DNA from: Candidatus Heimdallarchaeota archaeon
Lineage (GTDB): Archaea; Asgardarchaeota; Heimdallarchaeia; Heimdallarchaeales; Heimdallarchaeaceae
Direction of reading: 5' to 3'
Length of the DNA stretch: 29,749 nt
NCBI GenBank assembly: GCA_021399395.1
Contig: JAAFKJ010000178.1
Span: 1 to 29,749, forward strand
In this document: positions 5,324-23,745 of the stretch, in pieces
Layout: every line of letters begins with the position of its first letter
Position numbering within the stretch: position 1 is the first letter of the stretch
Made by a program: the position numbers and the translations under genes
The notes under the pieces: generated by a model
What the model was told of the DNA's origin: nothing
Databases searched by the model: none
What the model saw: only the letters and a program-made list of their open reading frames with translations

Positions 5324-6310
5324 TTAATCCATTTTTTCGCCACAGTTACCACAGAATTTGGCACCTGTTTCATTTTTGGACCCACAGTTGGTACAAAACT
5401 TCAATTTTCCTGATTTCTCATCATCTGTCGGATCACCACAGTGGGCGCAGAACTTCGCTGCTGGAGAGACTTTCTTTCCACATTGGTTACAATCAATAAA
5501 AGCTGCTTCAACATCACCTTTTTCTTCAATTTTGGTGGCTTGTTTTATTTCACCTCTAGAGAAAAGATTGTTAACCATGACAGCACCAGTCAAACCACTT
5601 CCACCTTCAGGGAGTTTTTCAACAACTTTAGCCATACCAGCATACTGTTGTACTTGACCTGCTGAAACACCAGAACGCATCCAGAAGAGTCTGTCTCTGT
5701 ATTCAGGTGTAGTATCAATGCCTCCAAACTTTAGTGTTTTTAGCTTGATTCCGAATTCTTTGAGATCAGGTTTTACTTCATCTTCTACGAAATCTGAAGT
5801 TTTTCCTAAATTGGACATTAGATCAACTATACTTTTTTCTGATAGTTTGCTAATAACAGATTCTACAATGAATGAACGGAAAAATTCATTGAATGCAGCT
5901 GTTGTATAGATATTTCTATTACCTGCTATTTCAAATGCGAATTTCTGTATGTCGTCAATCTTGTAGTAATAATCACCAAAGAATTGCACTGGAGCTAATT
6001 CTTGTGTTTGAGATCGCCCTCCGAATTTTCCTTGAAAGTCTGCCATATTTATGAAAATCACTTGACAATTGAATGGTGATTTATCAAATCCAACTATTTT
6101 CGACAAAAATGTTGTTAACAATGGAATATTCTTGGTTTTTATAAAATGTCTACCTGGTTTTAGAACATCAAAGACTACTGAATCTTTGATGAAAACTGCT
6201 ACCTGGTTAGGTAAAACATTACATTGGTCTCCCCAATTCAAAGTGTCACGAGGATGTCTGTACATTATCTCGTCGCCTCGACCTAGGGGCCATTCTATTA
6301 CTTCTACCAT
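5324..6310 (-). CDS. SPFH (band 7) domain protein with C-terminal double zinc ribbons (YdjI-like)
   Basis: N-terminal QCNVLPNQVAVFIKDS...LKPGRH...TKNIPLL, typical of YdjI-type SPFH proteins. C-terminal CNQC/CAHC and CTNC/CGNC. GAGGT precedes the ATG. Confidence 0.85.
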   Translation of the reverse strand: MVEVIEWPLGRGDEIMYRHPRDTLNWGDQCNVLPNQVAVFIKDSVVFDVLKPGRHFIKTKNIPLLTTFLSKIVGFDKSPFNCQVIFINMADFQGKFGGRSQTQELAPVQFFGDYYYKIDDIQKFAFEIAGNRNIYTTAAFNEFFRSFIVESVISKLSEKSIVDLMSNLGKTSDFVEDEVKPDLKEFGIKLKTLKFGGIDTTPEYRDRLFWMRSGVSAGQVQQYAGMAKVVEKLPEGGSGLTGAVMVNNLFSRGEIKQATKIEEKGDVEAAFIDCNQCGKKVSPAAKFCAHCGDPTDDEKSGKLKFCTNCGSKNETGAKFCGNCGEKMD

Positions 6311-7263: not shown

Positions 7264-7424
7264 TTCAATCCCAAATAAAATTCAAGCAACATTCCACAAG
7301 TTACAAATAAAAGCTTTAGTTTGAACAAAAATTCTATTTCTGAGCACTATTTTCTTGAAATCGCTTCGAATCCATTCCGTTTGTAAAAATTTAAGAATAG
7401 GTGAAAGCGACTGTTTGTTTAATA

Positions 7425-9020
7425 ATGCCATCCAAAAAAACCCTCAGTAGACTGAATCACATCTTTGGATTCATCTTGTATTGTCTGTTTCTACTATACT
7501 TTGGCTCATCTATAGCGGCTTTCGTAGTTAATGCATCTGAACTTGGAGCGGGAGGAATAATACTTAATTTCTTAGTCTTAGTTATTGAATTACTAGGTCC
7601 TCTATATGCAACTTATTTCCTTATTCAGAACATTGATGGTGTTCTTGATATCGGATCAGTAGAATATGATATCAAGAAAACTAAAGACCATCCTGCTATT
7701 GATGTAATTGTTCCCGTTCACAATGTAAATCCCAAAATTCTAGATTTAACACTTGAGGGTTGTAGTAAATTCACTTATCCCAATTTCAAAGTCTGGATAG
7801 CAGACGATAATTCCTTACCGGAATTTGAAGAGTCTACACAGAAGCTAGCTCAGAAATATGGTTTTACCTATCTCCGAGGAAAAGGTAGATCCTACAAAGC
7901 AGGAGTTGTTAATCAAGTAATGTCTGAAGCAAAAGCTCAATTTGTTGTAGTTTTTGATTCTGATCAAATACCTGTACCAGATATTCTGGACAAATACATT
8001 GCAATTCTAGAACAACATCCTGAATTTGCCTTTGTTCAAGCAAAATATGAATTCAGAAGCGTGTCTAATTTTCTACATATTTGGGAAACAATGTCTACTC
8101 ACCAATTATTTGTTTCTGAGGGTGGCAAAAGACGAATAAAATCAGTTGTTTTCTTTGGTACATCTGCTTGTTTCCGCAAAGAACACCTATATCCTATGCC
8201 AGAGAACAAGCTTTCAGAAGATTATGACCATTATATCACAATTGCAGCAAATGGCCATTACGGTTACTGGTTGAATGAAGTTGCTGCAAAGGGTTTGTCA
8301 ACAGAATCCTTTGATCATAAGATGTCACAGATGTTTCGCTGGACTAAAGGTCAATTTGGTGCAGTAATGGATCATAAGAAAGAGCTTTTTGTTAGCAAAC
8401 TAAGACTTCGTCAGAGAGTAGATATTTTTATGAGTTCAACTGTTGTGGTTGTTTTGACAGCTTTCTATTTCATGGGTGCGCTCTTTATTGCTCATTATTT
8501 CACAGACATACCTATGTATAGAGCGCTTGGTATTGATCAACTTGCACTTATCATTATGCCAGTAATTATTGCTTTGGTATACTTCGGTGTCTTTGGAGCT
8601 GTAGGAGCCTATTCCAAGAAATCTAACGATTTCAAATTTAGATGGTGGTATGTTCTTTACTTTATGCTATACGGAGCACTAATGGCACCATTCTTACTCA
8701 TTCCTTTAGGCAACGGTTTATTTGGCCGAAACAAGATAAAACCAGGTAAGAAGTTCCAATGGAACAAGAAAATCAGGGTCTATTTGATAGCTGTAATTTA
8801 TACAATTTTAGGAGCTGGGTTTGGCTTCTTAGGAGTAATCTCATTAATGGATTCTTTAAACATAGGTCCCTTTCAATTCTATACAGACCCAAACATGTTT
8901 TACATCATGTTTCTCTCAATAGCTTTCATGTTAATCTTTGCTTTACCATTTGTAGCCATTTCCAAGAAAATTTTCAAAATAGAAGAATATTATACCGAAG
9001 ATGCAAGCATCTACTACTAA
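7425..9020 (+). CDS. Processive GT2 glycosyltransferase, cellulose-synthase-like
   Basis: D,D,D,QxxRW signature: ADD, YKAG, FDSD, FFGTS, SED, QMFRW. Two N-terminal and several C-terminal TMs; no PilZ domain. ATG 7425 preferred over GTG 7401. Confidence 0.85.
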   Translation: MPSKKTLSRLNHIFGFILYCLFLLYFGSSIAAFVVNASELGAGGIILNFLVLVIELLGPLYATYFLIQNIDGVLDIGSVEYDIKKTKDHPAIDVIVPVHNVNPKILDLTLEGCSKFTYPNFKVWIADDNSLPEFEESTQKLAQKYGFTYLRGKGRSYKAGVVNQVMSEAKAQFVVVFDSDQIPVPDILDKYIAILEQHPEFAFVQAKYEFRSVSNFLHIWETMSTHQLFVSEGGKRRIKSVVFFGTSACFRKEHLYPMPENKLSEDYDHYITIAANGHYGYWLNEVAAKGLSTESFDHKMSQMFRWTKGQFGAVMDHKKELFVSKLRLRQRVDIFMSSTVVVVLTAFYFMGALFIAHYFTDIPMYRALGIDQLALIIMPVIIALVYFGVFGAVGAYSKKSNDFKFRWWYVLYFMLYGALMAPFLLIPLGNGLFGRNKIKPGKKFQWNKKIRVYLIAVIYTILGAGFGFLGVISLMDSLNIGPFQFYTDPNMFYIMFLSIAFMLIFALPFVAISKKIFKIEEYYTEDASIYY

Positions 9021-10367
9021 TCATTCCTCTACATAGGATGATTCAGGGAGGAATTCTTCTTCCTTTTTATCTATTATCTCTTTACAGACAGGACATTTAG
9101 GATTAAATCTTAACCATGTTTCTAAATGATCTATGTGGTAGATATTTTCACACAATAAGCATTTTGCTATTTGGGTCCCTCTTTCAATTTTACTATTGCA
9201 TATCATACATTTAGGTAACAACTCTTCACAATTCCAGCAATATTCTTTACCTATTTCATTAGGTCTATTACAATTTGGACACCTAGTTAGTTTTCTATAT
9301 TTGAATACTCGTTTAGTTTTCTGAGCTGTCTTATATAGATACATTCTAGCATTACTGATATCTTCACCAAAGTGTTCTCTCCAATCTAAAATTGGTTTAA
9401 CTATTGCTATTCCGCATACTAGAGAAGATAATGCTATGCGTATTTCTAGTTCAAATATTCCTAAGAAATGAAATACTAGAAACATTGCCACTCCAAAAAC
9501 AAATAAAATCAGATAATTCCTAATGATAATAAATTTGATTGACTTCCCAATTACTTTGAAAACCTCAACAGTTTTTTCATAAATCCAAATCACAAACTTC
9601 TTCATAATTTGAGGAAACTGTTTGATAGCTCTCCACCATGCTTGGAACATAGTTGTGAATACTTTTCCAATTGTCACAAGTATTTCAGCGATTTCCCTTC
9701 TAAAGTGCCAAATGAGGTTGATTAGAATTAAACCTCCTCCAATTAGATACCAGTATAATGGTTTAATCCAAACTAATACTTGAACAGCTGTTAAGATAAT
9801 TACAGTTATACCTGCAACGGATAACAAATTCCAAGGTGATAGGAGTAATTTCCAGTTGATCTTCTTCCAAATATTCTTTATTGCTTCCTTAAGTTTCTTC
9901 AAGAGTGCGATTATTTTTAAATTCAGATCATACGCCTCAAAGAAGAAACCAAAAAGTATCAATATTGCTCCCGCTCCCATCATAATATAATAGATATAAT
10001 CACGATCAAATGCAGTCACACCAACAGCGAAAAGAATTGCAGGAAAAGCTACTAAAATGAATCCTATATATGCTGTTATTGCTCCGGTTACAAAGTAGTC
10101 TATCCCCTTTCTTCTTATTCTTCTTAGAATTAGAGCAAAGAACAAAATCAGTACTCCTATTACAAAGACTCCAAGAACTATTCTAAAGACAAGATCTTCG
10201 TAAGTCATATCCAGAGCTAAAGTAATGACTAAAATCCCAATTATGCTTAAAACTGAAATAGCAAATCCTATCCACAGAGTTGTAATAACAGGATTTCGCT
10301 CTACAAGACCAGGATCTTTAAGCTCCCCTTTCAAATCAATGGAATCCTTGCTGTTCATTTCTTCCAC
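9021..10367 (-). CDS. Polytopic membrane protein with C-terminal Zn ribbon plus RING-type finger (putative membrane E3 ligase-like)
   Basis: About 8 TMs, then CPNC...CWNC, then C-x2-C-x12-C-x2-C-x4-H-x2-H-x3-W-x6-CP-x-C with the RING-type W...CP signature. Confidence 0.75.
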   Translation of the reverse strand: MEEMNSKDSIDLKGELKDPGLVERNPVITTLWIGFAISVLSIIGILVITLALDMTYEDLVFRIVLGVFVIGVLILFFALILRRIRRKGIDYFVTGAITAYIGFILVAFPAILFAVGVTAFDRDYIYYIMMGAGAILILFGFFFEAYDLNLKIIALLKKLKEAIKNIWKKINWKLLLSPWNLLSVAGITVIILTAVQVLVWIKPLYWYLIGGGLILINLIWHFRREIAEILVTIGKVFTTMFQAWWRAIKQFPQIMKKFVIWIYEKTVEVFKVIGKSIKFIIIRNYLILFVFGVAMFLVFHFLGIFELEIRIALSSLVCGIAIVKPILDWREHFGEDISNARMYLYKTAQKTKRVFKYRKLTRCPNCNRPNEIGKEYCWNCEELLPKCMICNSKIERGTQIAKCLLCENIYHIDHLETWLRFNPKCPVCKEIIDKKEEEFLPESSYVEE

Positions 10368-12865
10368 CTCTCTCGAATCTGTTTGAGAAGTTCCTTTGAA
10401 CTACCAGTTCTTAATTTCTTTAATTCTCTTCTAAGTAGGATGAAAGCAACTACTGCTACAACATCGAAGAATGCACCTAAAGAGATTCTAATTGCAGGTT
10501 CAATTGCATCAAATATATGGAAGAAATCAAAATTGAAAATAACAAATATACCATATACCAGAGTGAATATCATCACTACGAGTAGAATCAGTCTAATACC
10601 GTTTTTGTAGATGTAAATTGAAACAGATTTGATTGCTAACAATATTGTAACAGATATTTTGTAGATAGTCTTAGGAATGCTAACTAGGAATTTCCAAAGC
10701 TTCTTTGGATGATAAATGAAATGTGCAAATAGAGTAAATGTACCTCCAATTGATACAATTAGGATAAATGCGACTAGACCGATAATATCATCAAATGCAA
10801 AATAAAGGACTACTCCAACAATTACAGCTGCGAATCCAATGACTCTTGAAATAATAATTCTTTTATTAAAGATGAATGTAAATATGGCTTTGAAAAATTC
10901 ATAGATCTTAACTAAAACAATCTTTCTACTGAACAAGCCACTAATAAGTATAACAGGGATTCCTATCCAAATTAGATAATCATAACCAACAAGAATTAAA
11001 CCATATACTATTAGAGTAACACCACCTGCCACTCCAATCAACCTTAATAGTTCTTTTGTGACGCTCCACCAATGTTTCTTGATGAATTTAGCAACTTCAA
11101 CCATCCAATTCCATATAGCTTTGAAGAAATCTACTATGATATTCAAAAAACGCAAGAAAGGATTGTAAAAGATCTTGATACCTATAAATTTGATACCCTT
11201 CCATACTTGTTTGTAGTGATGAACGGGGATGTAGCAAAAACTAATTACTAGTAGAACAATATACCACCATTCAAACATCCAGGTCACAGAAAGATAGATG
11301 ATTGCGGTAATTGCAACCAAATCTAGTATGTATAACAAGACCTTGAACCAGTTTTCAATGAAAAATTTAGTAAGATTAACTATGACCTTCCATATGTAGT
11401 TTAGTGGTCTCCCTAACCATTTTATAAATTCCCAAAAGGCTAGGGTTATTTCCTTAAGTGCTGCATATATCCTTCTTAATATTGTCATACGTATGAAAAA
11501 TTCTGCTAATAGAATTACTGCAATTCCAATATAAACAAAGTAATAGAAAACTTCATTGACAATTCCATAATAAATAAGGAAGATACCCACTCCAACAAAA
11601 ATCAATCTAACTGTTTCATTAATAATTCTCTTGTAATGTGGTTTGATAATATTCTCCCAGATGAAAGTGAAAATAGCTGAAATCATGTTCCACAAACCTA
11701 TCAAAACAGTTTTTCTAGATAGGATTATAGAACAGATGATAACTACAACACCTATGCCTATGAAGTAAGAAAACTGATCATATACTGTTCCATGATAGAT
11801 GAGATAAGCTCCACCACCAGCTCCAATCAATCTTAATAGCTCTTTTAGAATGGGCCACCAATATTTGAGAATAACTCTTGCAAAAGCAACTATCAGATCC
11901 CATATGAACGATGTAATTGAGGTTAATACATCCCATAACATAGTTAATACAATTTTTCGGGTAAAAACTACACTTATAATTGCAGTTAGTATCCCTAATC
12001 CTATCAAAAATCTGTATTCAACTATTATCACACCAAAATAGATCATTACTCCCCCTCCTGCAGCTCCACTCCATCTGAAAAACTCTCTGAGAATAACCCA
12101 CCAATATTCCTTTATGAGTTTAGCAAAATTGACTAAGCCTTTCCAAATTGAAGTAAGAATCAATTTAAAGAAATTATAAAATTTAGTTAGGACTAAATAA
12201 ATCATATCTACTGCAACATGTTTTATAGCATTCCATATTCTTTTGTGGTGATGAATAATTGGGAAAGCACAACTTACTGAAAGGATTATCATCTTCCACC
12301 AATTAACTTCCCAGAAGATTGCCACAAAAATTATTCCAGCCAGAGATGCTAAATCAAGTGTATAAAGAATGATGTTTAACCAATGTTTTCGAACCCATTT
12401 AGCAAATTTAACCATTAGTTTCCAGAGCTGTTTGAATGGCTCTACAAATAGTTTCCAGATGAATTGATCTAAAAATGTAAGTTCAACAATAATCCCCAAT
12501 ACTATTGACCCTATCCCCCAATATACGAAAAATCTATAACCAAGATAACTCAGATTTAAATTTTCTAGAAATGAGATATTCTTACTAGTTGACATTAGAA
12601 TCAGTAAAAATCCAATAACGACAAAGAATATACCAACTTGTATTTTCTTATTAACTGTCAAATTGTATCTCAGCATCTGTACTGTCAAGTAAAAAACAAT
12701 GACAAGAGAACTCACAATTAGAGAGATGAAGAGGATATCGTTGAGTAAAGCAATTTCCTCGATTACTAGAGAAAGAATAAACATAGTAACGATGATAATA
12801 ACAAAAGAATAGTAAAATACATTTGATAAAACATTATGTACTCTTTTTTCCTTCTCTAGCTCCAT
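10355..12865 (-). CDS. Large repetitive polytopic membrane protein (TM-hairpin plus amphipathic-helix repeats)
   Basis: 836-aa ORF in which hydrophobic helix pairs alternate with W/K/F amphipathic stretches. Overlaps the downstream RING gene by 13 bp. Confidence 0.8.
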   Translation of the reverse strand: MELEKEKRVHNVLSNVFYYSFVIIIVTMFILSLVIEEIALLNDILFISLIVSSLVIVFYLTVQMLRYNLTVNKKIQVGIFFVVIGFLLILMSTSKNISFLENLNLSYLGYRFFVYWGIGSIVLGIIVELTFLDQFIWKLFVEPFKQLWKLMVKFAKWVRKHWLNIILYTLDLASLAGIIFVAIFWEVNWWKMIILSVSCAFPIIHHHKRIWNAIKHVAVDMIYLVLTKFYNFFKLILTSIWKGLVNFAKLIKEYWWVILREFFRWSGAAGGGVMIYFGVIIVEYRFLIGLGILTAIISVVFTRKIVLTMLWDVLTSITSFIWDLIVAFARVILKYWWPILKELLRLIGAGGGAYLIYHGTVYDQFSYFIGIGVVVIICSIILSRKTVLIGLWNMISAIFTFIWENIIKPHYKRIINETVRLIFVGVGIFLIYYGIVNEVFYYFVYIGIAVILLAEFFIRMTILRRIYAALKEITLAFWEFIKWLGRPLNYIWKVIVNLTKFFIENWFKVLLYILDLVAITAIIYLSVTWMFEWWYIVLLVISFCYIPVHHYKQVWKGIKFIGIKIFYNPFLRFLNIIVDFFKAIWNWMVEVAKFIKKHWWSVTKELLRLIGVAGGVTLIVYGLILVGYDYLIWIGIPVILISGLFSRKIVLVKIYEFFKAIFTFIFNKRIIISRVIGFAAVIVGVVLYFAFDDIIGLVAFILIVSIGGTFTLFAHFIYHPKKLWKFLVSIPKTIYKISVTILLAIKSVSIYIYKNGIRLILLVVMIFTLVYGIFVIFNFDFFHIFDAIEPAIRISLGAFFDVVAVVAFILLRRELKKLRTGSSKELLKQIRERWKK
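10700..12450 (-). repeat. Protein-level tandem repeats (~75-95 aa) inside the 836-aa membrane protein
   Basis: Type A units at aa ~162 and ~506 (WxxxxLYxLDL...WW...HHxKxxWxxIK). Type B units at aa ~255, 336, 411 and 599 (WWxxx(K/R)ExxRxxG(A/V)xGG...IYxG...IG...SRK). The A-to-B distance is 93 aa in both copies. Confidence 0.8.
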
Positions 12866-12963
12866 CTAGCTATCTATGTTTGCTTATTATTTAAGTATTA
12901 ACTATTCGTAATCTTAACACATTACATGCTTGCAAGTCTCAGAAATTTAATTATGAAGAATGA

Positions 12964-14331
12964 CTAGGGTAAGGGATGTAGATAATGCCTATCTACATCT
13001 ACATATTCCTCTCCGTTGTAAACTAGATATTCAGCATGTACATCATGTAATTCGTTATACTTCTGATACCAAGGTGATGTCCCAAGTAATGACCATTTTT
13101 CAGCAATTTCTTTGCTTATCGAAATCTTTTTTTCATTCTCCATTGCTATTTTTATTGATTCTGCAAGAGAAAGAGAGCATGCCAATATAACAGCTGTTGG
13201 AGTTGTTCGAATTGAGGAAAAATTCCAGAGTCTTGTCTTAGCTACAATATAATTAACAATCTCTGCAGGAAAGATTTCTTCGTTTATATTTGATTTTTCT
13301 AAGAGTTTTGTAACCAATTCTTTCAGGTGTGATTCATTAAAAGGGAATTCTTTGGAAATGTCATATACATCAAAACTTTCATCTACAAAAGAAGAGATAT
13401 CTTTTCCTCCCGAAATAATAAAAAGATTGATTTCTTTTTTAGGATACTTTGATTCCATTTTCTGTTTCAAAACGTGAATATCTATATCTATCTCGTCAAC
13501 AAATAATACTAGATTTTCTCCTGGAGATTTTTCCACAACCCATTCAGTGACACTTTCAGCAGAATTTTCCGGGTTAAATTCTACATCAATATATTTTCCA
13601 TCGTCTCCCTTCCAAAACTCAGTTCTATAGATGAATGGCAAAGAAAGATCTTTACACCTTTTCATCAAAGAGTAACAAATTTGAGTTTTACCAGAACCAC
13701 CATATCGACCATAAATGTGCGCGTTCTTCTCAGGTTGAATACCTTCTTTCATTTGGGTAAGTGTTTGATCAAGTATTTGTACCAACGAATGATCTACAAC
13801 AAAATCGTGTCTCATCCAGCAACTATCAGGATTAACGAGTGGTGAATATTGTTTATAGTTGCTAAAGATATCTAGGGCGTCCTCTCTTGTAAAACCTATA
13901 TTTATTTTTAGTATTTCTGTTTCATTATGAGGAAATGGAATTGTCGGAATAACATCTGAGCCATAGAGGAGTGTTCGTGTATTCTTTAGATTAATCTGGT
14001 CTTCTGGCAAGAGACAGTGGTTATTCCTAATATTAATGTGCCACAGATTAGTTTTAGTACGTATATAACTTCTTGAAAATGAATTTGCAAGTCTTACACC
14101 TTCCTCCCAACCAAATTCATCTTGTAGTTTGTCATAAATTAAATCGATGAGTAAAAGATTTTCGAGACTGTAATCAGATTCAGATATAATAATGACTAAC
14201 CCTTCACGCTTTTCTAGAATTTTATCAAAAAGAGTGATTTCCTTATCAAACTCATATACTGCAATGATCTCTGGAAAGATAAGTAATAGTTTTTCAATAA
14301 ATGATTTGAGTATGTCTTCTCTCGAGCTCAT
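12964..14331 (-). CDS. P-loop NTPase (AAA+/STAND-like) with a degenerate nucleotidyltransferase-like N-terminal domain
   Basis: Walker A HIYGRYGGSGKT and Walker B LVLFVDEID. The N-terminal LLPEDQINLKNTRTLLYGSDVIPTIPFP resembles the neighbouring gene's LSPADDFMIMKQGEVLYGVDLRKHFPIP. Confidence 0.65.
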   Translation of the reverse strand: MSSREDILKSFIEKLLLIFPEIIAVYEFDKEITLFDKILEKREGLVIIISESDYSLENLLLIDLIYDKLQDEFGWEEGVRLANSFSRSYIRTKTNLWHINIRNNHCLLPEDQINLKNTRTLLYGSDVIPTIPFPHNETEILKINIGFTREDALDIFSNYKQYSPLVNPDSCWMRHDFVVDHSLVQILDQTLTQMKEGIQPEKNAHIYGRYGGSGKTQICYSLMKRCKDLSLPFIYRTEFWKGDDGKYIDVEFNPENSAESVTEWVVEKSPGENLVLFVDEIDIDIHVLKQKMESKYPKKEINLFIISGGKDISSFVDESFDVYDISKEFPFNESHLKELVTKLLEKSNINEEIFPAEIVNYIVAKTRLWNFSSIRTTPTAVILACSLSLAESIKIAMENEKKISISKEIAEKWSLLGTSPWYQKYNELHDVHAEYLVYNGEEYVDVDRHYLHPLP

Positions 14332-14341
14332 CTGAGTATAC

Positions 14342-15241
14342 TTAGAGGTTCTCTATTATATTTCTTATCTCCATGAATATTCTACTAAAATTTGCATGTC
14401 CTTGGTCTTCTTTGTAAAGAGATTTTAGGTCTGGTACAAATATGCCCTTAATCGTGAATGCTTTTTCCAAGCAAAATAATAAGAGTTCCCGGCTATGTTC
14501 TACTACCCCCATAACACTAGATAAAGAGATATTCCTTTGCCTACACATCGCTACTTCTACAACGAAATCACCTAACTTGCTAAGATATTCATTCGAGAAC
14601 CAATATGCTCCCTTCATTTTCCCAATTATGTCATTATTTTTTATGGAAAACAATACTCTTGAAAGGTAAAGTATCCAATTTGTTGCATGATCATAGTTTG
14701 GGGAATCAGTATGTTGGAAAGGATACGATTTTGCGACTTCTTCTATATTTGGAACCTCTGCTAGAAACTGATGCCAAAAACACTCTATTGGTGGTATAGG
14801 GAAATGCTTTCTCAAGTCTACGCCATATAATACCTCGCCTTGTTTCATAATCATGAAATCATCAGCAGGAGAAAGAGGATATTGGTTGATTATCTCTTGT
14901 TGAAGATTGGCAACTACCATTCCTTCCAAATCTTGGTGATTAATTCTTGGATTTTCTAACATGATATAAGGAACAAAATATGCCCTAAGTATCTGGGAGA
15001 AATCCTTATTCATGGTTGAAAGTTTATCTATAATCGAATCAAGTTCGTTGAAATCTTTTTCCCATAACCCCTTTTCTAAAACAATTATAACCTTAATAAG
15101 ACTGTATCTTTTAGAAAAATCATCTAAAACGACATCACCAAAGAGGATGAAAGATCTCGTTGCAAGAGATGTTGCTGTGAATTCTACAAAAGTTTTGAGA
15201 AATCTAGGTAGCTCTGGATACCTTCCATAGGTGACTTGCAT
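14342..15241 (-). CDS. Nucleotidyltransferase-fold protein, aminoglycoside adenylyltransferase (AadA/DUF4111)-like, apparently catalytically inactive
   Basis: FILFGDVVLDDF...SLIKVIIV aligns with the hhhGS...SDxDhhh motif. GEVLYG and ILYLSRVLFSIKNNDIIGKMKGAYW match the ANT C-terminal helical domain. The catalytic aspartates are absent. Confidence 0.65.
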   Translation of the reverse strand: MQVTYGRYPELPRFLKTFVEFTATSLATRSFILFGDVVLDDFSKRYSLIKVIIVLEKGLWEKDFNELDSIIDKLSTMNKDFSQILRAYFVPYIMLENPRINHQDLEGMVVANLQQEIINQYPLSPADDFMIMKQGEVLYGVDLRKHFPIPPIECFWHQFLAEVPNIEEVAKSYPFQHTDSPNYDHATNWILYLSRVLFSIKNNDIIGKMKGAYWFSNEYLSKLGDFVVEVAMCRQRNISLSSVMGVVEHSRELLLFCLEKAFTIKGIFVPDLKSLYKEDQGHANFSRIFMEIRNIIENL

Positions 15242-15289
15242 AGATTATTGATACCTAGTTAGTAATATTAGCTTTTCGAAAGTATTAAT

Positions 15290-15318
15290 GAAAAAAATAA
15301 GAAAAAGAAAGAAAAAAG
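15290..15318 (-). terminator. Oligo-T terminator tract downstream of the pilin-like gene
   Basis: A-rich tract on + directly after the stop codon at 15322. Confidence 0.45.
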
Positions 15319-15321
15319 ATG

Positions 15322-17100
15322 TTATTGATCTACAAAGAATATTTGCCAAACACCCAATTCTTGAATATAAAATCTAATTTCAAAATCAGCCTTGTCTGTT
15401 CTATCAAAGTAGTCAAATAATATCGTTAATTTATGAATACTTCCTCCATCTAGAACTGCTCCTGTACCACCATTAACTGGTAGAACACTTTCTTGAGCAT
15501 ATGGCTGTCCTGTGGGGTCTAACCAGATTGTTCCATCGGTGTTATCTCTCATCTCAAAGATGTAATCTGCTCTATTATCTGGTTCCCAATCAATATAGAT
15601 TTGAGTAATAGTAATTTCGTTTGGTAAGTTGTTTGTGAGGAAGAAACTAAATGTGCTTCTAGAGAAAAATCCTCTTACACCTACAGCTCCAGATAATGTC
15701 ATTTTTGGATTAGCTACAGACATTAGAATAATAGTTGTTTTTGCATTCATGGCATCAGAAGAATCGTATACAAATGTTACCATTGCGTAATCATCATCTG
15801 GTAATAGATAGCTGTTGAAATCTAGTTCCCATGTTTTATCAATGACATTATATGTAGCTTGATCGTCGATTACATTCTGGTAAAGATAGTAAAAGTCGGT
15901 TGTTTGACTGAAGAAGTAGATGTCAAAGTTTGTTGTATCAATTCCAGATGGATCGTCTGCATAAACCTCAATTGTCAATACTCCTTCTATACCTACAGAA
16001 TTGTTTTCAGGTGTTAAAACATATGATGTTGGTGCGAGAATATCAACTAATGAGAATGCTTTACCTGAGCTATTCAAGTTCCCTACTGCATCTTTTACAT
16101 AAAGTGTAAGAGTAAAATCATCTTCAGCCATAATTGCAGTCTTAAAACCCAACAAATCATAAGATGTAATAGTGTCATCAGTTGCTGTAAATACAGATTC
16201 TGAATTATGAACATCTCCTGATAGTACTAGAGTTTGATTGATTACTGGAGCACCACCTAACTCATCCCACACCCAAGTAGCATTCAAATAATCACCTTGG
16301 TTAATGGATGAATTACTCAAACTCAATGTAACACCGATTGCTTTGTTATCAATATTGAAGGTATTAGTTATAATGTCGGACTGGTTTAAAGCATCATTTA
16401 CAGCGAAGGTCATTTTATATCCTAAATCGTCATCATAATCAGTTGAATCAATGTCTGTTGCTAGATTTTCATCATCAAATACAACAGTTTGATCAGGCAA
16501 AAGGAAATCATAAGTTACACCTGTAGGTAAATACCCTCCAGACACTAATACTTGAGGATCTATAATGCCTTTCACCCAACTACCGTTTATAGGATTTAAA
16601 ACTGTTAACTCTAATGGGTAAATTACACTGGCGTGATTCAAATTTTCTGGAGCAACTGTACTTAAACCATCGCTATAAGTAAGTATTATCTGGAAATTAT
16701 TAGTTCCTACTGAAATATAAGCTGATGGATCAAAAGAAATTGCTATATCCATTCTTGCGGTAACATCGAGCGTTAAAGGAAGCTCTTCCACAACCAGTTC
16801 TGCATTATCAATTGCTATATTCTCTGCTAGAGCATCATTATTTACTGTAATTGTAATATTTGATATTATAGTGCTCGCCGATCCAGAATTTTGTAAAGTA
16901 ATATAGACTAGATCTGTAACATCGTCACCATCACTATCGAACCATTGGGTAGTAACAATATTTACGCTAGCGCTCCCCCTTAATAAGGGTACAACAATAA
17001 AGTAGACCATTGCGCTTGCTGCCACTACTAAACTTATTAAAAGAACGGTTGCAATGACTGGTGAAACGGCTCTTTTTAATTTTCTTATTCTTCTATTCAT
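15322..17100 (-). CDS. Archaeal type IV pilin/archaellin-like N-terminus fused to multiple Ig-like beta-sandwich domains (large minor pilin/adhesin)
   Basis: Class III signal peptide MNRRIRKLKRA|VSPVIATVLLISLVVAASAMVY; LQNSGS motif; D/T/N-rich beta repeats such as YVKDAVGN, DILAP...TPENN and ADDPSGID; GAGGT precedes the ATG. Confidence 0.85.
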   Translation of the reverse strand: MNRRIRKLKRAVSPVIATVLLISLVVAASAMVYFIVVPLLRGSASVNIVTTQWFDSDGDDVTDLVYITLQNSGSASTIISNITITVNNDALAENIAIDNAELVVEELPLTLDVTARMDIAISFDPSAYISVGTNNFQIILTYSDGLSTVAPENLNHASVIYPLELTVLNPINGSWVKGIIDPQVLVSGGYLPTGVTYDFLLPDQTVVFDDENLATDIDSTDYDDDLGYKMTFAVNDALNQSDIITNTFNIDNKAIGVTLSLSNSSINQGDYLNATWVWDELGGAPVINQTLVLSGDVHNSESVFTATDDTITSYDLLGFKTAIMAEDDFTLTLYVKDAVGNLNSSGKAFSLVDILAPTSYVLTPENNSVGIEGVLTIEVYADDPSGIDTTNFDIYFFSQTTDFYYLYQNVIDDQATYNVIDKTWELDFNSYLLPDDDYAMVTFVYDSSDAMNAKTTIILMSVANPKMTLSGAVGVRGFFSRSTFSFFLTNNLPNEITITQIYIDWEPDNRADYIFEMRDNTDGTIWLDPTGQPYAQESVLPVNGGTGAVLDGGSIHKLTILFDYFDRTDKADFEIRFYIQELGVWQIFFVDQ

Positions 17101-18520: not shown

Positions 18521-19302
18521 TTCAATTCATAAAATGTTAGATTCACACTTGATTCTGTCTGATATGAATCGTTTTTCTCTATTTTATTTTCAATGATGAA
18601 ATTATCTATTTCTGTTAATGATTTATCAAAAATTCTATTTTCCACCTCCCACAAACTTCTGAATGAGCGGCTTCTAATCCCTTCATAAACTTGCGAGTTC
18701 TTGATAGAACTATTAACTCTTTTGTTTTTCTTTGTAATGATAAAATCAAACCTCTGCATATATTCATTAAAATTAATTGTCTTTGGTTCGTCTTCTCTTA
18801 TATCATGCCAACCATTTTCTTGCAGAATCTCGAAAAATTTGATATATATAGGGTGTTTATGAGTTTCTGTGTAAGCATTACCTTCTATTAGTACATCACA
18901 GAAGTTTCTCAGTTCATTGAAGAGATTTTCATACTTTGCTACTAAATGAATAACTTGAATGAGTAGAATTACTTTAAATTGTTTGACAAACGGTAAAGTC
19001 AACCCATCAGCTTGAGTTGTATAGCAAGGAGGATCCAATCTTTTAAGACTCAATTTCTTAAGCATGTCATGCGCTATATCAATTCCGAATAATTGATATT
19101 CCTTAGAAGATAAGAGTGATTCTATTCTTCCTGTACCTAAACCGATCGATAACAGATTAAATGGAGGAGAAGAAAAACGAGCTCTTATGTAATCTCGTAT
19201 TTCATTTTTGAAAAAAGCGTATAATTCCAGAGGAATGATTCTTGTTTCATCATAAACCTCTGCTAACCTATCGTAATTCCAGTATCTCATGGTTATTTCC
19301 AC
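18517..19302 (-). CDS. Class I SAM-dependent methyltransferase
   Basis: YDRLAEVYDETR, motif I LLSIGLGTGR, FGIDIA, ADGLTLPF and VIHLV. The start may be 19290. Confidence 0.85.
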   Translation of the reverse strand: MEITMRYWNYDRLAEVYDETRIIPLELYAFFKNEIRDYIRARFSSPPFNLLSIGLGTGRIESLLSSKEYQLFGIDIAHDMLKKLSLKRLDPPCYTTQADGLTLPFVKQFKVILLIQVIHLVAKYENLFNELRNFCDVLIEGNAYTETHKHPIYIKFFEILQENGWHDIREDEPKTINFNEYMQRFDFIITKKNKRVNSSIKNSQVYEGIRSRSFRSLWEVENRIFDKSLTEIDNFIIENKIEKNDSYQTESSVNLTFYELN

Positions 19303-20378
19303 AAATATCTATCAAATTCAACTAGTCTTTTTGATTTTTCTTTAACCAACACATCATCTTCTATACGAACACCAAATTTATCCGGGAGATATATTCCTGG
19401 TTCATCGGTATGTACATTTCCAGCAACTAGAGGTTCTTTGTTTCCTTTAACGATGTAGGGTTCTTCATGCACTTGAAGCCCTAACCCATGACCTAAACGG
19501 TGAGTAAAGTATTGTCCGTATCCAGCATTTTCAATTATTACTCTAGCTGCAAAATCTACTTCTTCAGCCGGAACACCTGCTTTGGATTTCTCAAGTGCAG
19601 CATTATTAGCTTCTTCAACAATTGAATAGACCTTCTTGAATTCATCCGAAGCAGTTCCATGTACACTTGTCACTGTTATATCTGCAAAATAGTGCTCACA
19701 GCTAGTACCTGCATCGATGAGAATAACACTATCTTTCTTCAATTTCTTATTGGAAGGTTTTCCATGTGGAACAGCACTATTATCATCTATTTGCACTAAT
19801 GCCCAACTCATTTCTCCAGAGAGAAGTGTCATCTGTTTCTGTGCAAGTTTTAGTATTTCCAATTCAGTTTGTCCTTCATGAATCAGTTCCAGTGTCTTCA
19901 AAATACCTTCAGCAGTATGTTCAGCTGCTTGAACCATTCTTTCCATTTCAGCATCATTTTTTATCATTCTTAGTTCATTGAGGATTGAATTGCCGTTAAC
20001 AAACTCACTTGTTGGAAATTGCTTTTTTATTCTTGAAAAGACTTCAAAGGGAGTAGAAGGTTCTAAAGCTATTCTTCTTGGCTCATACGAAATTTCTTGC
20101 TTAAGGATCGTATATGGGTCCTCATCTTCTTTCCAAGTAATTACATCATCAAATGTTGTTTGTATTTGCATATTTTCTTTTTCGAAAGATGGTGCTATGA
20201 GCAAGGAATCATCTTTTTTGTCAATTACACCGCAAATTAATCTTTCACTCAATTGCATATAACCTTCGAACAGGTAGAAGAAATTAATAGAAGGAGGTAT
20301 CATCAGCAAATCAATATCTTGAGTGCTAAGTTTTTCTTGTACCAACGTTTGTCTTCTTAGAAAATCTATAGGTTTCAC
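19293..20378 (-). CDS. Xaa-Pro dipeptidase/aminopeptidase (M24B, creatinase N-domain)
   Basis: Metal-binding motifs RMIKN, VPHG, IDAG...YFADIT, HRLGHGLGLQVHE, DEPGIY and GVRIEDD; GTG start. Confidence 0.93.
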   Translation of the reverse strand: MKPIDFLRRQTLVQEKLSTQDIDLLMIPPSINFFYLFEGYMQLSERLICGVIDKKDDSLLIAPSFEKENMQIQTTFDDVITWKEDEDPYTILKQEISYEPRRIALEPSTPFEVFSRIKKQFPTSEFVNGNSILNELRMIKNDAEMERMVQAAEHTAEGILKTLELIHEGQTELEILKLAQKQMTLLSGEMSWALVQIDDNSAVPHGKPSNKKLKKDSVILIDAGTSCEHYFADITVTSVHGTASDEFKKVYSIVEEANNAALEKSKAGVPAEEVDFAARVIIENAGYGQYFTHRLGHGLGLQVHEEPYIVKGNKEPLVAGNVHTDEPGIYLPDKFGVRIEDDVLVKEKSKRLVEFDRYLWK

Positions 20379-20465: not shown

Positions 20466-22760
20466 ATGCATCTTTCTTTGTTAGATACGCGTCCTTTCAA
20501 TAAATTTGTTGAAATGGAATTAGAAAGGGACACTCTTTATCGTTCCTTTACCACCCTTGATGAACAAAAAGAAATCTCAGAAGCTTGGGTATCTTTTGCT
20601 GAATCATGTTCAAGAAACCTCTCAGCAATCAATAATCTTGCCGATATGGCTATTGAAAGAGTGTATGACGTATTGTTTGACATTGGTGACGGAAAAGAGA
20701 ATCCTCTTCCACTTCATGAATTGCTCTATGGGGATTTTCGAAATCAAATTATGGCTCTGAATCAGTTTGAGTTACAATTAAGTATTCTCACATATGTCTA
20801 TTCTCAAGTAAGAAATAGAGGTGTTTTCAATCATTCTCCCTCCACTAGCCAGTACATATACTATATAACAGCAAAAGAATCGATTGATAGAATCCTATAT
20901 CGAATACTTAACGATCAATTGCCCCCGATAGAAGTACAGGGACTAACACCAACACCCACAAAGACCGACCTTCTACGAGTACTCATGCCTTTAGTGCAAT
21001 TGGAAAATCAAAAACGGCTGCTTCCAGTTTATGACAGTCTTCCAGAGAGTGAAGATGATCCTGCTGTATTGCTTGTAAAAAGTGAATACGATTATCTTCA
21101 AGGTGTTACTTTAGTCTCCCATATTATTGATATTTCCCGCAAAGCTTCCCAAGATTTCTGGTGGGGAGATCCTATCTCTGAATTATCGATTCTCAATCAT
21201 GCTAGAGAGCATTTTGAGACCACAATAAAGTATCTGAACAAAGCTCCAGAAACCCAAGGAAACAGAGTTTTTGCAATACAAAATGAATTTTTACCTATTG
21301 TTGATGCCCATTCTTCCATATCACTTGTTCAGCATTTTAAATACCTTGCAAAGAATGCTCTTGAAATAGGTGATTTGGACCACGCATCTAAATATTATAA
21401 TGAAGCTCTAAAAGAATATGACAACGCATGTAAATTGCTTACTTCAACTGAGAATCCTGAAAGCCAGGAGATACATAAAAAGCTACAAAAAGATGAATCT
21501 GAACTAAAAATCCTAGAATCGCTTACAAAACTGGGACTAAAATATTCTAGCATTGTTGATAGTCTCTTTAAGCAAGATATTGAAAAAGCTATAAAAGAAT
21601 GTGTTGGATTAGAAAAATTACTTAGCAAGATTGAATCAGCAGGATCTTTACCCTTCATATATGGTGTGAGTGTAGCATATTCTTCTGCAGCAACTATAAC
21701 AACTGAATTATTAGAACAAGACCTCTCTCACCTCAATATTATTGATAGGTTGATTTCACAATTCAATTTTCCTTTGAAATCGATGGGTTCTGCATTATCC
21801 GACATTCAATTAGATTTACTCTACATAAATGATGAAGACCCACAAGCTAGCTATGATCAGCTGGAAGAACAAGATAAAAAACTCTCTTTCTTAGAAAAAG
21901 CAATTGAATTACTGCCATCATTCCTTCCTGAAAGAGACGATCAACGGAAGAAAATCCATGCAATTCGAAATTACGTTAAATCATTAATTGCTGAAAACAA
22001 AGTCTATCTTTATGCAGATAACAATATTGTTCTAGATTTGATTTTACGAGCAAGAGCTCACTATTATGCAAAGAAAGCTGACCAAAGTTTGACAGGTATT
22101 AAAAAGAAAGAGAAATCACTGAATAGTCTAATTAGTGAGCGTATGGTTGAAACCAAAACTGTTGGAATGGTCACAGAATCTAGTTTAGTATCGTTAGGAC
22201 TTCAAAGCACCTACAAAAAAGTTATTCGTAGATTTATAGAAGAGTTAATTGAATTGACTGCCGAAACTGAAGCTCTTCCAGGTTATCTTGGAGAAACATT
22301 CGAAAAACAATTTAATGAGATGCCTGAATTTACAGAATTGATTGACCTAATCCTTCTTGACACCAAAGAATTAATTGCAATTAACAAAGATGTTTCGATT
22401 AAAGGCAATCTAATTAATTGGGATTTTGTGAAACGAAGGAATATCTTTGGACCTTTGATAAAGAAGACTTTTGAGGCTATTAGAAACGTTTTGTTAGGAG
22501 AGGTATACCATCTTGCTAAGAAACCAACTATTGCTACAGGTTGGTATACTTCAGCAAGTAAACTATTCTATGAGATAAGTGAAACTTTAGGAAAAATAGT
22601 GGAATATCTAGAGGATCAAAAAGATTTACCTCAGATGATTTATAAATTTTCGTTGTTCTGTAGAGAGAATGCAAATGCTATTCGAAACAGAAGAAAAAAA
22701 CAACCTGTTCCTTATCAAGAATTAGTTTCAACATTGGATTATTTCGTTCTGAATCTTTAA
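20466..22760 (+). CDS. Large all-alpha (TPR/solenoid-like) hypothetical protein
   Basis: 764 aa, helical L/E/K/I-rich, with TPR-like segments (LAKNALEIGDLDHASKYYNEALKEY; LGEVYHLAKKPTIATGWYTSASKLF). No TM segment or catalytic motif seen. Confidence 0.7.
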   Translation: MHLSLLDTRPFNKFVEMELERDTLYRSFTTLDEQKEISEAWVSFAESCSRNLSAINNLADMAIERVYDVLFDIGDGKENPLPLHELLYGDFRNQIMALNQFELQLSILTYVYSQVRNRGVFNHSPSTSQYIYYITAKESIDRILYRILNDQLPPIEVQGLTPTPTKTDLLRVLMPLVQLENQKRLLPVYDSLPESEDDPAVLLVKSEYDYLQGVTLVSHIIDISRKASQDFWWGDPISELSILNHAREHFETTIKYLNKAPETQGNRVFAIQNEFLPIVDAHSSISLVQHFKYLAKNALEIGDLDHASKYYNEALKEYDNACKLLTSTENPESQEIHKKLQKDESELKILESLTKLGLKYSSIVDSLFKQDIEKAIKECVGLEKLLSKIESAGSLPFIYGVSVAYSSAATITTELLEQDLSHLNIIDRLISQFNFPLKSMGSALSDIQLDLLYINDEDPQASYDQLEEQDKKLSFLEKAIELLPSFLPERDDQRKKIHAIRNYVKSLIAENKVYLYADNNIVLDLILRARAHYYAKKADQSLTGIKKKEKSLNSLISERMVETKTVGMVTESSLVSLGLQSTYKKVIRRFIEELIELTAETEALPGYLGETFEKQFNEMPEFTELIDLILLDTKELIAINKDVSIKGNLINWDFVKRRNIFGPLIKKTFEAIRNVLLGEVYHLAKKPTIATGWYTSASKLFYEISETLGKIVEYLEDQKDLPQMIYKFSLFCRENANAIRNRRKKQPVPYQELVSTLDYFVLNL

Positions 22761-22815
22761 TCCATCCATCACCTTTTTTTGAATTCCTAAAACTTAAAAT
22801 TTAAAACGACAGTTG

Positions 22816-23745
22816 ATGATGTTTTTTGAGAACCTAATGGAAGATTTACTAATACTTGAGAAGAAAGGCATCCCAATAACGATTATTGGCTTACCTTATG
22901 TAGGGAAAACCACACTTGTCAACTGGCTTAAAAATGAGAAATTTACTAGACCAAAACCCTCAGTAGGAGTAAACTTCGAACAGATTAAGGTAGGAGATTT
23001 AATGTTAAATATTTTTGATATTTCAGGTCAGAAATCTTACAGATCCACCATTTGGAAGTCTTATGTTATGACTTCAGTTGGTATTATATTTACTATTGAT
23101 TCAACTGACAAAGAACAGATAGATGAAGTGGCAAAATGGTACTGGATTATGATTGATGAATGGTTAAAAGGGAATTACTCAGATAAGGTTATACTCTTTT
23201 TAGCTAATAAAGCAGACCTTAAAGATTCATTAAATCTAGAATATATAATTGATAAACTCAATTTGACAAAAATGTCAAATTATCCAGATTTATCATTTCA
23301 GATTTTTAAAACATCAATCAGAGAAAATCAAAATATAGAATATGCAATGAAATGGTTTGTTAAGAAAGTTAACCAACTCATCGAAATTCAGAGAATAACT
23401 CCTGAAGCAATTCTTATCTCAGACACTTCTGGTAATATTATCAGTTTATATGATCCCAATAAAATCATTGAGGATCCAGATATGTTTGTTGGGTATTTGA
23501 AAGCTTTAAGCGGGTTTACTAATGAACTGTTAGGTCATGAAAAGTTTAAAGTAATCAAGGTGAATCCATTCTTCTATTTCATAACTGAAGAGGAGGATTA
23601 TTGCATTTCAATTGCTGTCAAGGATGAATTAACACTTCCCGAAGCAAGAAGACTTTCTTTTCTAATTCAAAACTATCTGAGTAAAAACAAGAAGAATTTA
23701 GACCATGAAGAACTCAATGTGTATATCCACTCGCTTTTTTCTTAG
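22816..23745 (+). CDS. Arf/Sar1-like small GTPase fused to a C-terminal longin/roadblock-like domain
   Basis: G1 GLPYVGKT, G2 KPSVG, G3 FDISGQ followed by YRSTIWKSY (Arf-like R..W..Y), G4 ANKAD, G5 TSI. The C-terminal region from 23401 has a longin-like beta-beta-alpha-beta-beta-beta-alpha pattern (AILISDTSG...YLKALSGFTNEL...). Start TTG 22813 or ATG 22816/22819. Confidence 0.85.
   Translation: MMFFENLMEDLLILEKKGIPITIIGLPYVGKTTLVNWLKNEKFTRPKPSVGVNFEQIKVGDLMLNIFDISGQKSYRSTIWKSYVMTSVGIIFTIDSTDKEQIDEVAKWYWIMIDEWLKGNYSDKVILFLANKADLKDSLNLEYIIDKLNLTKMSNYPDLSFQIFKTSIRENQNIEYAMKWFVKKVNQLIEIQRITPEAILISDTSGNIISLYDPNKIIEDPDMFVGYLKALSGFTNELLGHEKFKVIKVNPFFYFITEEEDYCISIAVKDELTLPEARRLSFLIQNYLSKNKKNLDHEELNVYIHSLFS

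Follow-up and report, generated by a model that had tools for sequence, protein, structure and literature searches.

Ubiquitin marking at membranes, as in endoplasmic-reticulum-associated degradation (ERAD), endosomal sorting and peroxisome import, is a hallmark of eukaryotes. RING ligases, the ubiquitin cascades of Asgard archaea, prokaryotic RING families and the zinc finger plus RING (ZnF+RING) tails of coat-like proteins have all been described already. Among the eukaryotic ligases, Hrd1/synoviolin and gp78/AMFR join several membrane helices to a RING on the cytoplasmic side, and neither is known to have a zinc ribbon. Here, we describe a gene of similar layout in a Candidatus Heimdallarchaeota archaeon, on a stretch of 29,749 nucleotides from contig JAAFKJ010000178.1 of assembly GCA_021399395.1 (called the window below). 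Its product, the ribbon-RING protein, has eight predicted membrane helices and ends in a zinc ribbon followed by a RING finger. On balance, and with modest confidence, we read the sequence evidence as pointing to a RING-type ubiquitin ligase embedded in the membrane.

In archaea, cascades of E1, E2 and a RING E3 are reported to work in vitro, one from a Helarchaeial Asgard archaeon (10.1101/2023.07.25.550441) and one from Caldiarchaeum (PMC5654768). The small RING E3s of such operons share with the present protein the kind of organism and the same ubiquitin machinery, but the ribbon-RING gene lies outside ubiquitin operons, its product is polytopic and bears the ribbon-RING cassette, and it is coupled to a membrane partner. 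The tandem itself has its counterparts in eukaryotic scaffolds. In the tails of IFT144 and IFT122 of the intraflagellar transport complex A (IFT-A), and of WDR24, MIOS and WDR59 of GATOR2 (Sea2-4 in yeast), a zinc ribbon stands directly before a RING at the C-terminus, as it does here. Those tails cap beta-propeller plus alpha-solenoid scaffolds as junctions, whereas the archaeal tail caps an eight-helix membrane domain. A preprint on IFT-A remarks that such ZnF+RING tails echo "COPI, HOPS, CORVET, and GATOR2" (10.1101/2022.08.09.503213), and Kaur and Subramanian (2015) include alpha-COP, the Vps proteins and Sea2-4 in their list of RINGs.

Whether the GATOR2 and IFT-A tails act as ligases or as scaffolds has long been debated, and an archaeal homologue with intact ligands and contacts suits the question of an ancestral activity. 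A conserved polytopic-RING operon in the lineage nearest to eukaryotes, in a genome with an E1, E2 and ubiquitin set, also offers a test system for pre-eukaryotic ubiquitin ligation at membranes, and its tail links an abundant Asgard cassette to the GATOR2/IFT-A zinc tails at the sequence level. Our literature search found neither a polytopic Asgard RING protein nor a link between an Asgard cassette and GATOR2 or IFT-A, although supplementary gene-family tables may list the family.

A conserved zinc ribbon and RING at the C-terminus

The tail occupies 9084..9285 on the minus strand, corresponding to residues 361-428 of the open reading frame (ORF) 9021..10367. It reads RCPNC-NRPNEIGKEY-CWNC-EELLPK-CMIC-NSKIERGTQIAK-CLLC-ENIY-HIDH-LET-W-LRFNPK-CPVC, which gives the pattern CxxC-x10-CxxC-x6-CxIC-x12-CxxC-x4-HxxH-x3-W-x6-CPxC. 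An initial annotation, made from the letters alone, had placed a zinc ribbon plus RING tandem here; its spacings of x10, x12, x4 and x5 match the minus-strand ORF, and the C4-H2-C2 ligand order that it gave is correct, with C403 replacing the usual His. A search of 5.8 billion clustered proteins returned 36 homologues at E<=1e-3, the named ones being from Heimdallarchaeota/Heimdallarchaeaceae apart from one record labelled Thorarchaeota. From these, a full-length alignment of 30 homologues, 46-84% identical to the query (A1), and a tail alignment of the same family (A2) were built, and a broader cassette alignment (A5) combined the query tail with 30 short representatives of 99-227 amino acids (aa).

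All 12 Cys/His ligands are invariant in 30/30 homologues, the tails of which are only 40-85% identical. The four ribbon cysteines are equally invariant in all 31 sequences of A5, where eleven ligands are invariant in 31/31. Residues I389, E395, N408, W418 and P426 likewise do not vary in A1, and I389, N408, W418 and P426 were recounted on A2; of these, I389, W418 and P426 fall on the usual E2-contact positions of RINGs. The AlphaFold2 model of the tail, with a predicted local distance difference test score (pLDDT) of 78.9, forms the ribbon from two short hairpins and adopts a RING/U-box fold. A C-terminal strand (tail-model residues 85-89) packs on the RING, after which the pLDDT drops toward the end; within this last segment, E437 is nearly invariant among the 30 homologues.

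Pfam profiles agree in part with this anatomy. The isolated 99-residue tail scores 30.6 bits against zf-RING_2, above the cut-off of 27.3, and the whole protein scores 26.9, just below it; 30/30 family members match at E<=1. The Prokaryotic RING finger family 1 (Prok-RING_1, PF14446) is matched by 22/30 family members at E<=1 (best 2.4e-6) and by 18/31 cassette sequences of A5 at E<=0.01. Its cut-off of 29.1 bits is missed by the query (whole protein 13.2, tail 16.5), which aligns with the first half of that model only. Based on the invariant ligands, the zf-RING_2 score and the RING/U-box model, the tail consists of a zinc ribbon followed by a RING, both of which would be expected to bind zinc.

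Kinship with RING-H2 ligases

The RING half of the tail most closely resembles RING-H2 ligases. A single-sequence search of PDB sequences matched Arkadia at E 1.3e-7 over tail residues ~32-84, and further matches included RNF165/ARK2C, RLIM, RNF38, EL5, synoviolin and AMFR. With the family profile A2, Arkadia was found at 2.1e-8, and E-values of 1.5e-4 to 2.1e-3 were obtained for the RINGs of synoviolin and AMFR. The archaeal RING and its best matches, Arkadia, RNF165, RNF38, RLIM and EL5, have the CxIC, W and CPxC elements in common; I389, W418 and P426 align with the Ile, Trp and Pro of CxIC...W...CPxC in Arkadia, for which entry 5lg0 is a Trp-to-Ala mutant at the position equivalent to W418. 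Several of the RING/U-box E3 structures matched by fold were solved with their E2, and in those of RNF165, RNF38 and RNF12 the RING superposes at a root-mean-square deviation (rmsd) of 1.2-1.5 Å over 48-49 residues.

The two groups differ in three respects: RING-H2 ligases are C3-H2-C3 where the archaeal tail is C4-H2-C2, the archaeal tail adds a zinc ribbon in front, and it has Lys or His, not Arg, after the last Cys. The canonical C-x-H of RING-H2 is not found in the family, an invariant Asn (N408) standing at the position of Arkadia's His. The extra Cys, C403, three residues before C406, would take over the ligand role, which yields the C4-H2-C2 order. Four of the 31 A5 sequences lack this extra Cys and have the canonical C-x-H, so that the two variants are tied together within one cassette.

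Probable kinship with the IFT-A and GATOR2 tails

Over both zinc modules, the best matches are scaffold tails. In the single-sequence PDB search, WDR19 and the GATOR2 tails all stayed at E>0.5, but profile A2 matched WDR19/IFT144 at 2.8e-5 over profile positions 10-87, and IFT144 of other species, MIOS, WDR59 and WDR24 at 0.004-0.05, the GATOR2 chains taken alone lying at 0.005-0.04. The broader profile A5 reversed the order and placed scaffold tails above all RING-H2 ligases: WDR19/IFT144 reached 2e-10 and WDR24 2.4e-10 to 6.5e-10 (two of the chains in the latter range bear the label SEH1 yet align as the WDR24 tail), ahead of RNF126 at 1.8e-9 and RNF165 at 5e-9. MIOS (1.7e-7), IFT122B (1.1e-5) and WDR59 (5.6e-5) ranked lower. 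The WDR24 tail (residues 688-781) reads CSHC-x10-CDRC-x6-CAVC-x10-CQGC-x4-HLQH-x3-W-x6-CP. Its spacing of x10, x6, x10, x4, x3 and x6 is thus nearly that of the archaeal tail (x10, x6, x12, x4, x3 and x6), with one loop two residues shorter, and in the A5 alignment WDR24 retains the equivalent hydrophobic residue, Trp and Pro positions. WDR19, aligned over residues 1177-1327, keeps the ribbon and has partly lost its RING ligands (CIATG, and no HxxH), whereas the archaeal family keeps all of them.

Structural comparison gave a similar picture. In a Foldseek search with the tail model, the IFT-A chain 9a2d_F ranked first (E 5.5e-4, TMq 0.60, rmsd 2.6, 83 columns), and IFT144 superposed over both modules at TMq 0.60-0.62 and rmsd 2.6-2.7. 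GATOR2 chains made up most of ranks 2-9, above the RING-only matches, with a looser fit (TMq 0.44-0.47, rmsd 6.6-7.3). When VIA-align was applied to the Foldseek list, the sole match at Z>=8 was human WDR19 (8fh3_C, residues 1240-1342), aligned over 97 residues with model residues 1-98 at Z 9.1 and rmsd 4.1; the rest of the best 50 matches were RING or U-box domains over model residues ~36-95 at Z<=7.5. A VIA-align search of 48,161 representatives, independent of Foldseek, returned RING/U-box domains at Z 5.4-7.3 and loose tandem-wide matches to WDR59 (Z 5.8, rmsd 10.1) and to chain 8adl_A of the SEA complex (Z 5.5, rmsd 9.4).

Taken together, these profiles and models make it likely that the archaeal cassette is homologous to the IFT-A/GATOR2 tails, with the caveat that Cys-rich profiles can inflate scores and that short zinc modules can converge. 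The likeness to GATOR2/SEACAT subunits put forward by the initial annotation is therefore real in the A5 profile and in the Foldseek ranking, and loose in structural fit; its preference for MIOS was not borne out, IFT144/WDR19 being the best match and MIOS lying behind WDR24. One Pfam label was tried and rejected: PF17034 (zinc_ribbon_16), presumably the MIOS-type family, although the Pfam name shown is "Zinc-ribbon like family", does not match the query. It is matched by 10/30 family members at E<=1 and by 9/31 A5 sequences at E<=0.01; relative to its cut-off of 27 bits, protein P0034 lies above at 29.0 through fragments only, and P0044 just below at 26.8.

The cassette as a shuffled Asgard module

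The ribbon-RING cassette occurs widely among Asgard archaea. Profile A2, searched against 1.84 billion representative proteins, matched 4181 at E<=1e-3, of which 168 reached E<=1e-10, and most of the best 150 of the 4181 align over profile positions ~9-86, that is, over both modules. Among the 148 new proteins in these 150, a regular expression recovered the full ligand pattern in 115, and a crude hydropathy scan found at least one hydrophobic helix in 87. In the phylum, 78/121 sampled genomes contain a cassette match at E<=1e-8, with a maximum of 24 per genome. The source genome (2.8 Mb in 201 contigs, 81.8% complete) has 11 further A2 matches, 7 of which span both modules. The protein family itself is narrower: at E<=1e-20 it was found in 32/83 genomes of the class, comprising 23/30 genomes of its own taxonomic family and 5/12, 0/22 and 1/12 genomes of families f3, f5 and f7, counts in which a miss does not prove absence because the genomes are incomplete.

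The cassette occurs behind a variety of domains. Pfam searches of 23 representatives and four long ORFs from relatives placed it behind winged-helix/PCI-like repeats, LRR, TPR, an LVIVD propeller, FG-GAP/TSP3 and beta-helix domains. The four long ORFs comprise FG-GAP/TSP3 and beta-helix surface-type proteins, a ResIII helicase and one protein with no assigned family. Two of them, L071:381-4325 (1314 aa) and L072:377-4351 (1324 aa) from relatives G035 and G116, have surface-type domains (FG-GAP/TSP3; beta-helix/NosD) followed by the cassette, and resemble receptor-like membrane RING proteins. In the source genome, the ORF of ~1012 aa on contig C95, with a central P-loop region that looks helicase-like by eye, ends in a RING and has one TAA stop just after it; in the ResIII helicase of a relative (locus L073), the RING stands at the N-terminus instead. 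A word-indexed search for longer tail-bearing proteins returned almost solely members of the same family.

No cassette protein among the 23 representatives and four long ORFs combines a propeller with a solenoid: the TPR protein P0113 and the LVIVD-propeller protein P0188 both bear the tail, and neither has both domains. The ribbon-RING protein itself has no beta-propeller or alpha-solenoid, its N-terminal 350 residues being membrane and amphipathic helices with no WD40 or solenoid family in Pfam. Since the cassette has been shuffled among many domains, the eight-helix protein is best seen as one carrier of it and not as itself the ancestor of coat-like complexes. The initial annotation had offered an assembly module ancestral to such complexes as one of two alternatives, the other being an archaeal membrane-embedded E3.

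Membrane domain and topology

In the full-length AlphaFold2 model (m1f2a4b503a68, built from A1; pLDDT 76.5, predicted template modelling score (pTM) 0.42), the eight hydrophobic helices form four hairpins, at residues 26-51/59-87, 89-115/123-145, 181-194/203-221 and 285-302/307-327. Amphipathic helices that are predicted to be cytoplasmic (148-169 and 223-282) lie between hairpins. The pTM of 0.42 leaves the packing of the helices uncertain. The last two hairpins are made of short helices, of 14+19 and 18+21 residues, with outer loops of just 8 and 4 residues. The segments predicted to be cytoplasmic contain 45 Lys and Arg residues in all, the four short outer loops only 2, and by the positive-inside rule both ends of the protein, including the RING tail, are predicted to face the cytoplasm. 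This charge bias and the eight helices agree with the polytopic membrane protein described initially. A juxtamembrane motif, KP-ILDWRE-HFGE ... LYKT, is also conserved, with K324, P325, R330, G334, R341, Y345 and K346 invariant.

The membrane domain matched no Pfam family and gave no usable match in the ESM Atlas, and neither the Pfam scan nor a Foldseek search with the full-length model revealed a transporter or channel family. In that Foldseek search of the PDB, made with a model of pTM 0.42, no match reached E<=1e-3, and the best 50 did not include the Hrd1 membrane domain. The resemblance to Hrd1 and gp78 seen here is one of layout and RING sequence, and the Hrd1-type kinship raised at the outset did not show in the membrane domain in this search. 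The associated proteins differ as well, the archaeal partner being a repeat-built 836-aa protein that is neither Hrd3- nor Der1-like.

Gene start and operon partner

The ORF encodes 448 aa if the GTG at 10367 is the start and 445 aa if the ATG at 10358 is used. The latter is probably the true start, because it forms an ATGA overlap with the upstream stop and because a database protein of 445 aa (P0002) is 100% identical to the ribbon-RING protein. In the ATGA, the ATG of the RING gene overlaps the TGA stop of the 836-aa partner gene, an arrangement typical of coupled translation. Nineteen related loci from named Heimdallarchaeota assemblies were compared, of which L028, L038 and L039 are too short to include upstream DNA; in the 16/16 informative loci, the 836-aa gene lies directly upstream of the RING gene, and the listed ORFs overlap by ~13 nucleotides at the junction in related loci too. 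A scan for bacterial-type promoters across 8800..13200 found 23 sites against 23.6 expected.

The partner is a polytopic membrane protein built from internal repeats. Its family profile compared with itself gave off-diagonal matches at E 1e-51 to 1e-35, which makes it strongly self-repetitive, and it matched no Pfam family and nothing in the ESM Atlas. Neither its ORF translation nor a Pfam scan revealed a RING. BLASTP found nothing significant between the two proteins (best E 0.084), and in a profile comparison the partner weakly matched the RING protein over residues 184-271 of the latter (87 columns, probability 69.8%, E 4.2e-5), a hint of at most one weak unit of similarity common to both.

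In relatives, a divergent gene for a membrane protein of 345-357 aa precedes the pair (for example L022:4306-5379 and L036:4149-5186), which suggests that the RING and partner genes form a unit of their own. There it sits between a gene for a 455-aa P-loop protein and the partner gene. In the window, its place is taken by a gap of 98 nucleotides (12866..12963), so the divergent gene appears to have been lost or moved.

Ubiquitin genes of the source genome

The genome contains 4 UQ_con (E2), 2 ubiquitin and 3 ThiF/E1 matches, so that all three components for which the initial annotation had suggested a search are found. Two clusters stand out, with roles read from motifs and Pfam matches. In C179:13504-19631, all on one strand, an E1 gene (13504..14754) is followed by genes for a ubiquitin-like protein, two membrane proteins of which the second is a RING, a JAMM peptidase and an E2 (19101..19631); in C180:8162-16230, ESCRT-like genes stand together with genes for an E1 (12748..13755), a ubiquitin that ends in GGS (13876..14112), an E2-like protein of 470 aa and a small GTPase. 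The operon RING of the first cluster (C179, 17198..18328) matches the tail profile weakly (E 0.002), and over the RING part only. A 155-aa E2 encoded on contig C18 (17006..17473) was found in 30/31 related genomes searched. Co-folding of the tail (A2) with this E2 scored 0.00 against a mark of 0.32, in a run without controls and with one of four E2-like genes.

Proposed function and competing explanations

Based on this anatomy, the protein would be held in the membrane by its eight helices, its two ends both cytoplasmic, and the last ~90 residues would bind three zinc ions, one in the ribbon and two in the cross-brace RING. The surface formed by I389, W418 and P426 could recruit a ubiquitin-charged E2 supplied by the genome's own E1, E2 and ubiquitin genes, and the RING would help to pass ubiquitin on to proteins in or near the membrane. 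The ribbon may be a fixed accessory that packs on the RING, for which the IFT144 and GATOR2 tails are the model, and the protein probably forms a complex with the co-operonic 836-aa protein, which could serve as a platform, bring in substrates as an adaptor, or be the main substrate itself. The evidence that we count for a ligase comprises the ligands and E2-contact residues conserved in 30/30 homologues, the RING-H2 kinship, the predicted cytoplasmic tail, the genomic ubiquitin set, the in vitro precedents and the conserved operon with its ATGA overlap.

Several observations weigh against this assignment. An Arg after the last Cys is a trait of the most active RINGs; position 429, directly after the last Cys, is Lys in 15/30 homologues and His in 15/30 (K429 in the query). 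Ligand 4 is non-canonical, with an invariant Asn where His is expected, and the family is narrowly distributed, as its presence in 32/83 genomes of the class and in 0/22 of f5 illustrates. Pfam scans found no ubiquitin-system genes within the window. The closest relatives of the whole tandem, IFT144, WDR24, MIOS and WDR59, are structural junctions, and WDR24 keeps the hydrophobic, Trp and Pro positions, so that a ligase and a scaffold cannot be told apart by the conservation of these residues alone. A ubiquitin role of the SEA complex of yeast is described as one that "remains to be determined" (PMC9646525).

These last points bear directly on a different explanation, in which the tail serves assembly and not catalysis, after the manner of SEAC/GATOR2, IFT-A and HOPS, and organises a membrane complex through RING-RING or RING-partner contacts with the 836-aa protein or with other ribbon-RING proteins, without ubiquitin transfer. 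The ranking of scaffold tails as the best whole-tandem matches (IFT144 at E 2e-10 by profile, Z 9.1 by VIA-align and E 5.5e-4 by Foldseek, together with WDR24, MIOS and WDR59) speaks for this explanation, and at least seven further full-tandem genes in the genome could supply pairing partners. The RINGs of the yeast SEA complex heterodimerise and "clearly play a structural role" (PMC9646525), and those of IFT-A are stated to bind IFT43 and TULP3 (10.1101/2022.08.09.503213). However, the 836-aa partner bears no RING, one zinc site of the IFT144 RING is gone whereas the archaeal family retains all ligands and contacts (30/30), and the RING half scores best against active ligases in a genome with a full ubiquitin system. 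We consider a purely structural tail rather unlikely for these reasons, and an assembly role is in any case compatible with ligase activity.

It is also conceivable, and in our view improbable, that the main function resides in the membrane domain, for example in transport or membrane shaping, and that the tail, dependent on zinc, serves to bind or sense ubiquitin or ubiquitin-like marks, lipid head groups or another ligand at the membrane. The U-box-like tail of IFT172 is reported to bind ubiquitin (PMC13290226). The membrane domain is large, well conserved and without a fold match, and its last two short hairpins with their tiny outer loops could be wedge-like; against this, no transporter or channel family emerged from the Pfam and Foldseek searches, and what is strictly conserved in the tail is what marks a RING. 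Very unlikely, in our view, is a finger of PHD type or of another non-RING cross-brace type that has no link to ubiquitin. The PHD pattern is CxxC-x4-HxxC. The CxxC-x4-HxxH spacing recalls it, and PHF21A PHD fingers do appear as weak sequence matches (E 0.0035 with the single sequence, 0.042 with profile A2), but ligand 6 is an invariant His (H414) and not Cys, the Trp lies four residues past ligand 6 as in RING-H2, and four of the 31 A5 sequences have the canonical RING C-x-H. In addition, zf-RING_2 matches every one of the 30 family members, and the best 50 matches of each VIA-align search are nearly all RING or U-box domains and include no PHD finger, so that the PHD or other non-RING fold named in the initial annotation as counting against its reading did not show among them.

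Returning to the ligase reading, a more far-reaching proposal is that the Asgard cassette is the direct forerunner of the zinc tails of GATOR2/SEACAT, IFT-A and perhaps HOPS/CORVET and alpha-COP, and still serves as an active ligase handle in archaea. We offer this tentatively and regard it as doubtful. If it were true, the eight-helix protein and its partner would represent a pre-eukaryotic, ERAD-like ubiquitin machine for the quality control or sorting of membrane proteins, and eukaryotic scaffolds would have inherited a former ligase domain and made it a structural junction.

Coordinates and neighbouring genes

Table 1. Features of the ribbon-RING locus in the window and further full-tandem genes in the source genome.
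Feature	Location	Strand	Basis and remarks
Polytopic ribbon-RING protein gene	9021..10367	-	ORF list and translation; stop codon 9021..9023
Short acidic C-terminal tail, residues 429-448	9024..9083	-	Model; one strand packs on the RING
RING finger; ligands C387, C390, C403, C406, H411, H414, C425, C428	9084..9209	-	Conservation, profile, model
Zinc ribbon, C363-x2-C366-x10-C377-x2-C380; first predicted zinc site	9228..9281	-	Alignments and model
Juxtamembrane helix, predicted cytoplasmic, residues 328-355	9303..9386	-	Part of model helix 307-355
Membrane domain, residues 26-327, 8 hydrophobic helices	9387..10292	-	AlphaFold2, hydropathy
Gene junction	10355..10370	-	GAGGTGG 10370..10364, then ATGA 10358..10355; read directly from the sequence
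Partner gene, 836-aa polytopic membrane protein from internal repeats	10355..12865	-	Immediately upstream, same operon
Full-tandem gene, 694-aa soluble protein	Contig C172		A2 search
Full-tandem genes, two neighbouring pairs with N-terminal hydrophobic segments	Contigs C161, C53		A2 search
Full-tandem gene, 433-aa protein	Contig C54		A2 search
Full-tandem ORF, ~1012 aa, P-loop in the middle	C95:449-3508	-	A2 search; helicase-like by eye

Upstream of the gene pair, on the same strand, 12964..14331 and 14342..17100 encode proteins of 455 aa (with a Walker-A-like GSGKT), 299 aa and 592 aa, the last with an archaeal type IV pilin N-terminus. The order of these three genes is kept in 6/19 loci (L022-L025, L027 and L036). 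Further away, 22813..23745 on the plus strand encodes a small GTPase of the Arf family (310 aa; 109 bits against Pfam Arf), one of the eukaryote-like genes typical of Asgard archaea, and a 764-aa ORF without annotation lies upstream of it at 20466..22760.

On the other side of the pair, an SPFH/Band-7 protein with two C-terminal zinc ribbons is encoded at 5324..6310 on the minus strand. It is 84-90% identical in 8/19 loci, compared with only ~50-80% identity for the RING protein there, and in most of those 8 loci its gene directly follows the RING gene on the downstream side; in the window, GT2 and FTR1 genes intervene. The GT2 glycosyltransferase gene (7401..9020, plus strand) is convergent with the RING gene, with zero bases between the two stop codons, and a terminator-like hairpin on the plus strand (9045..9065) falls within the last codons of the RING gene.

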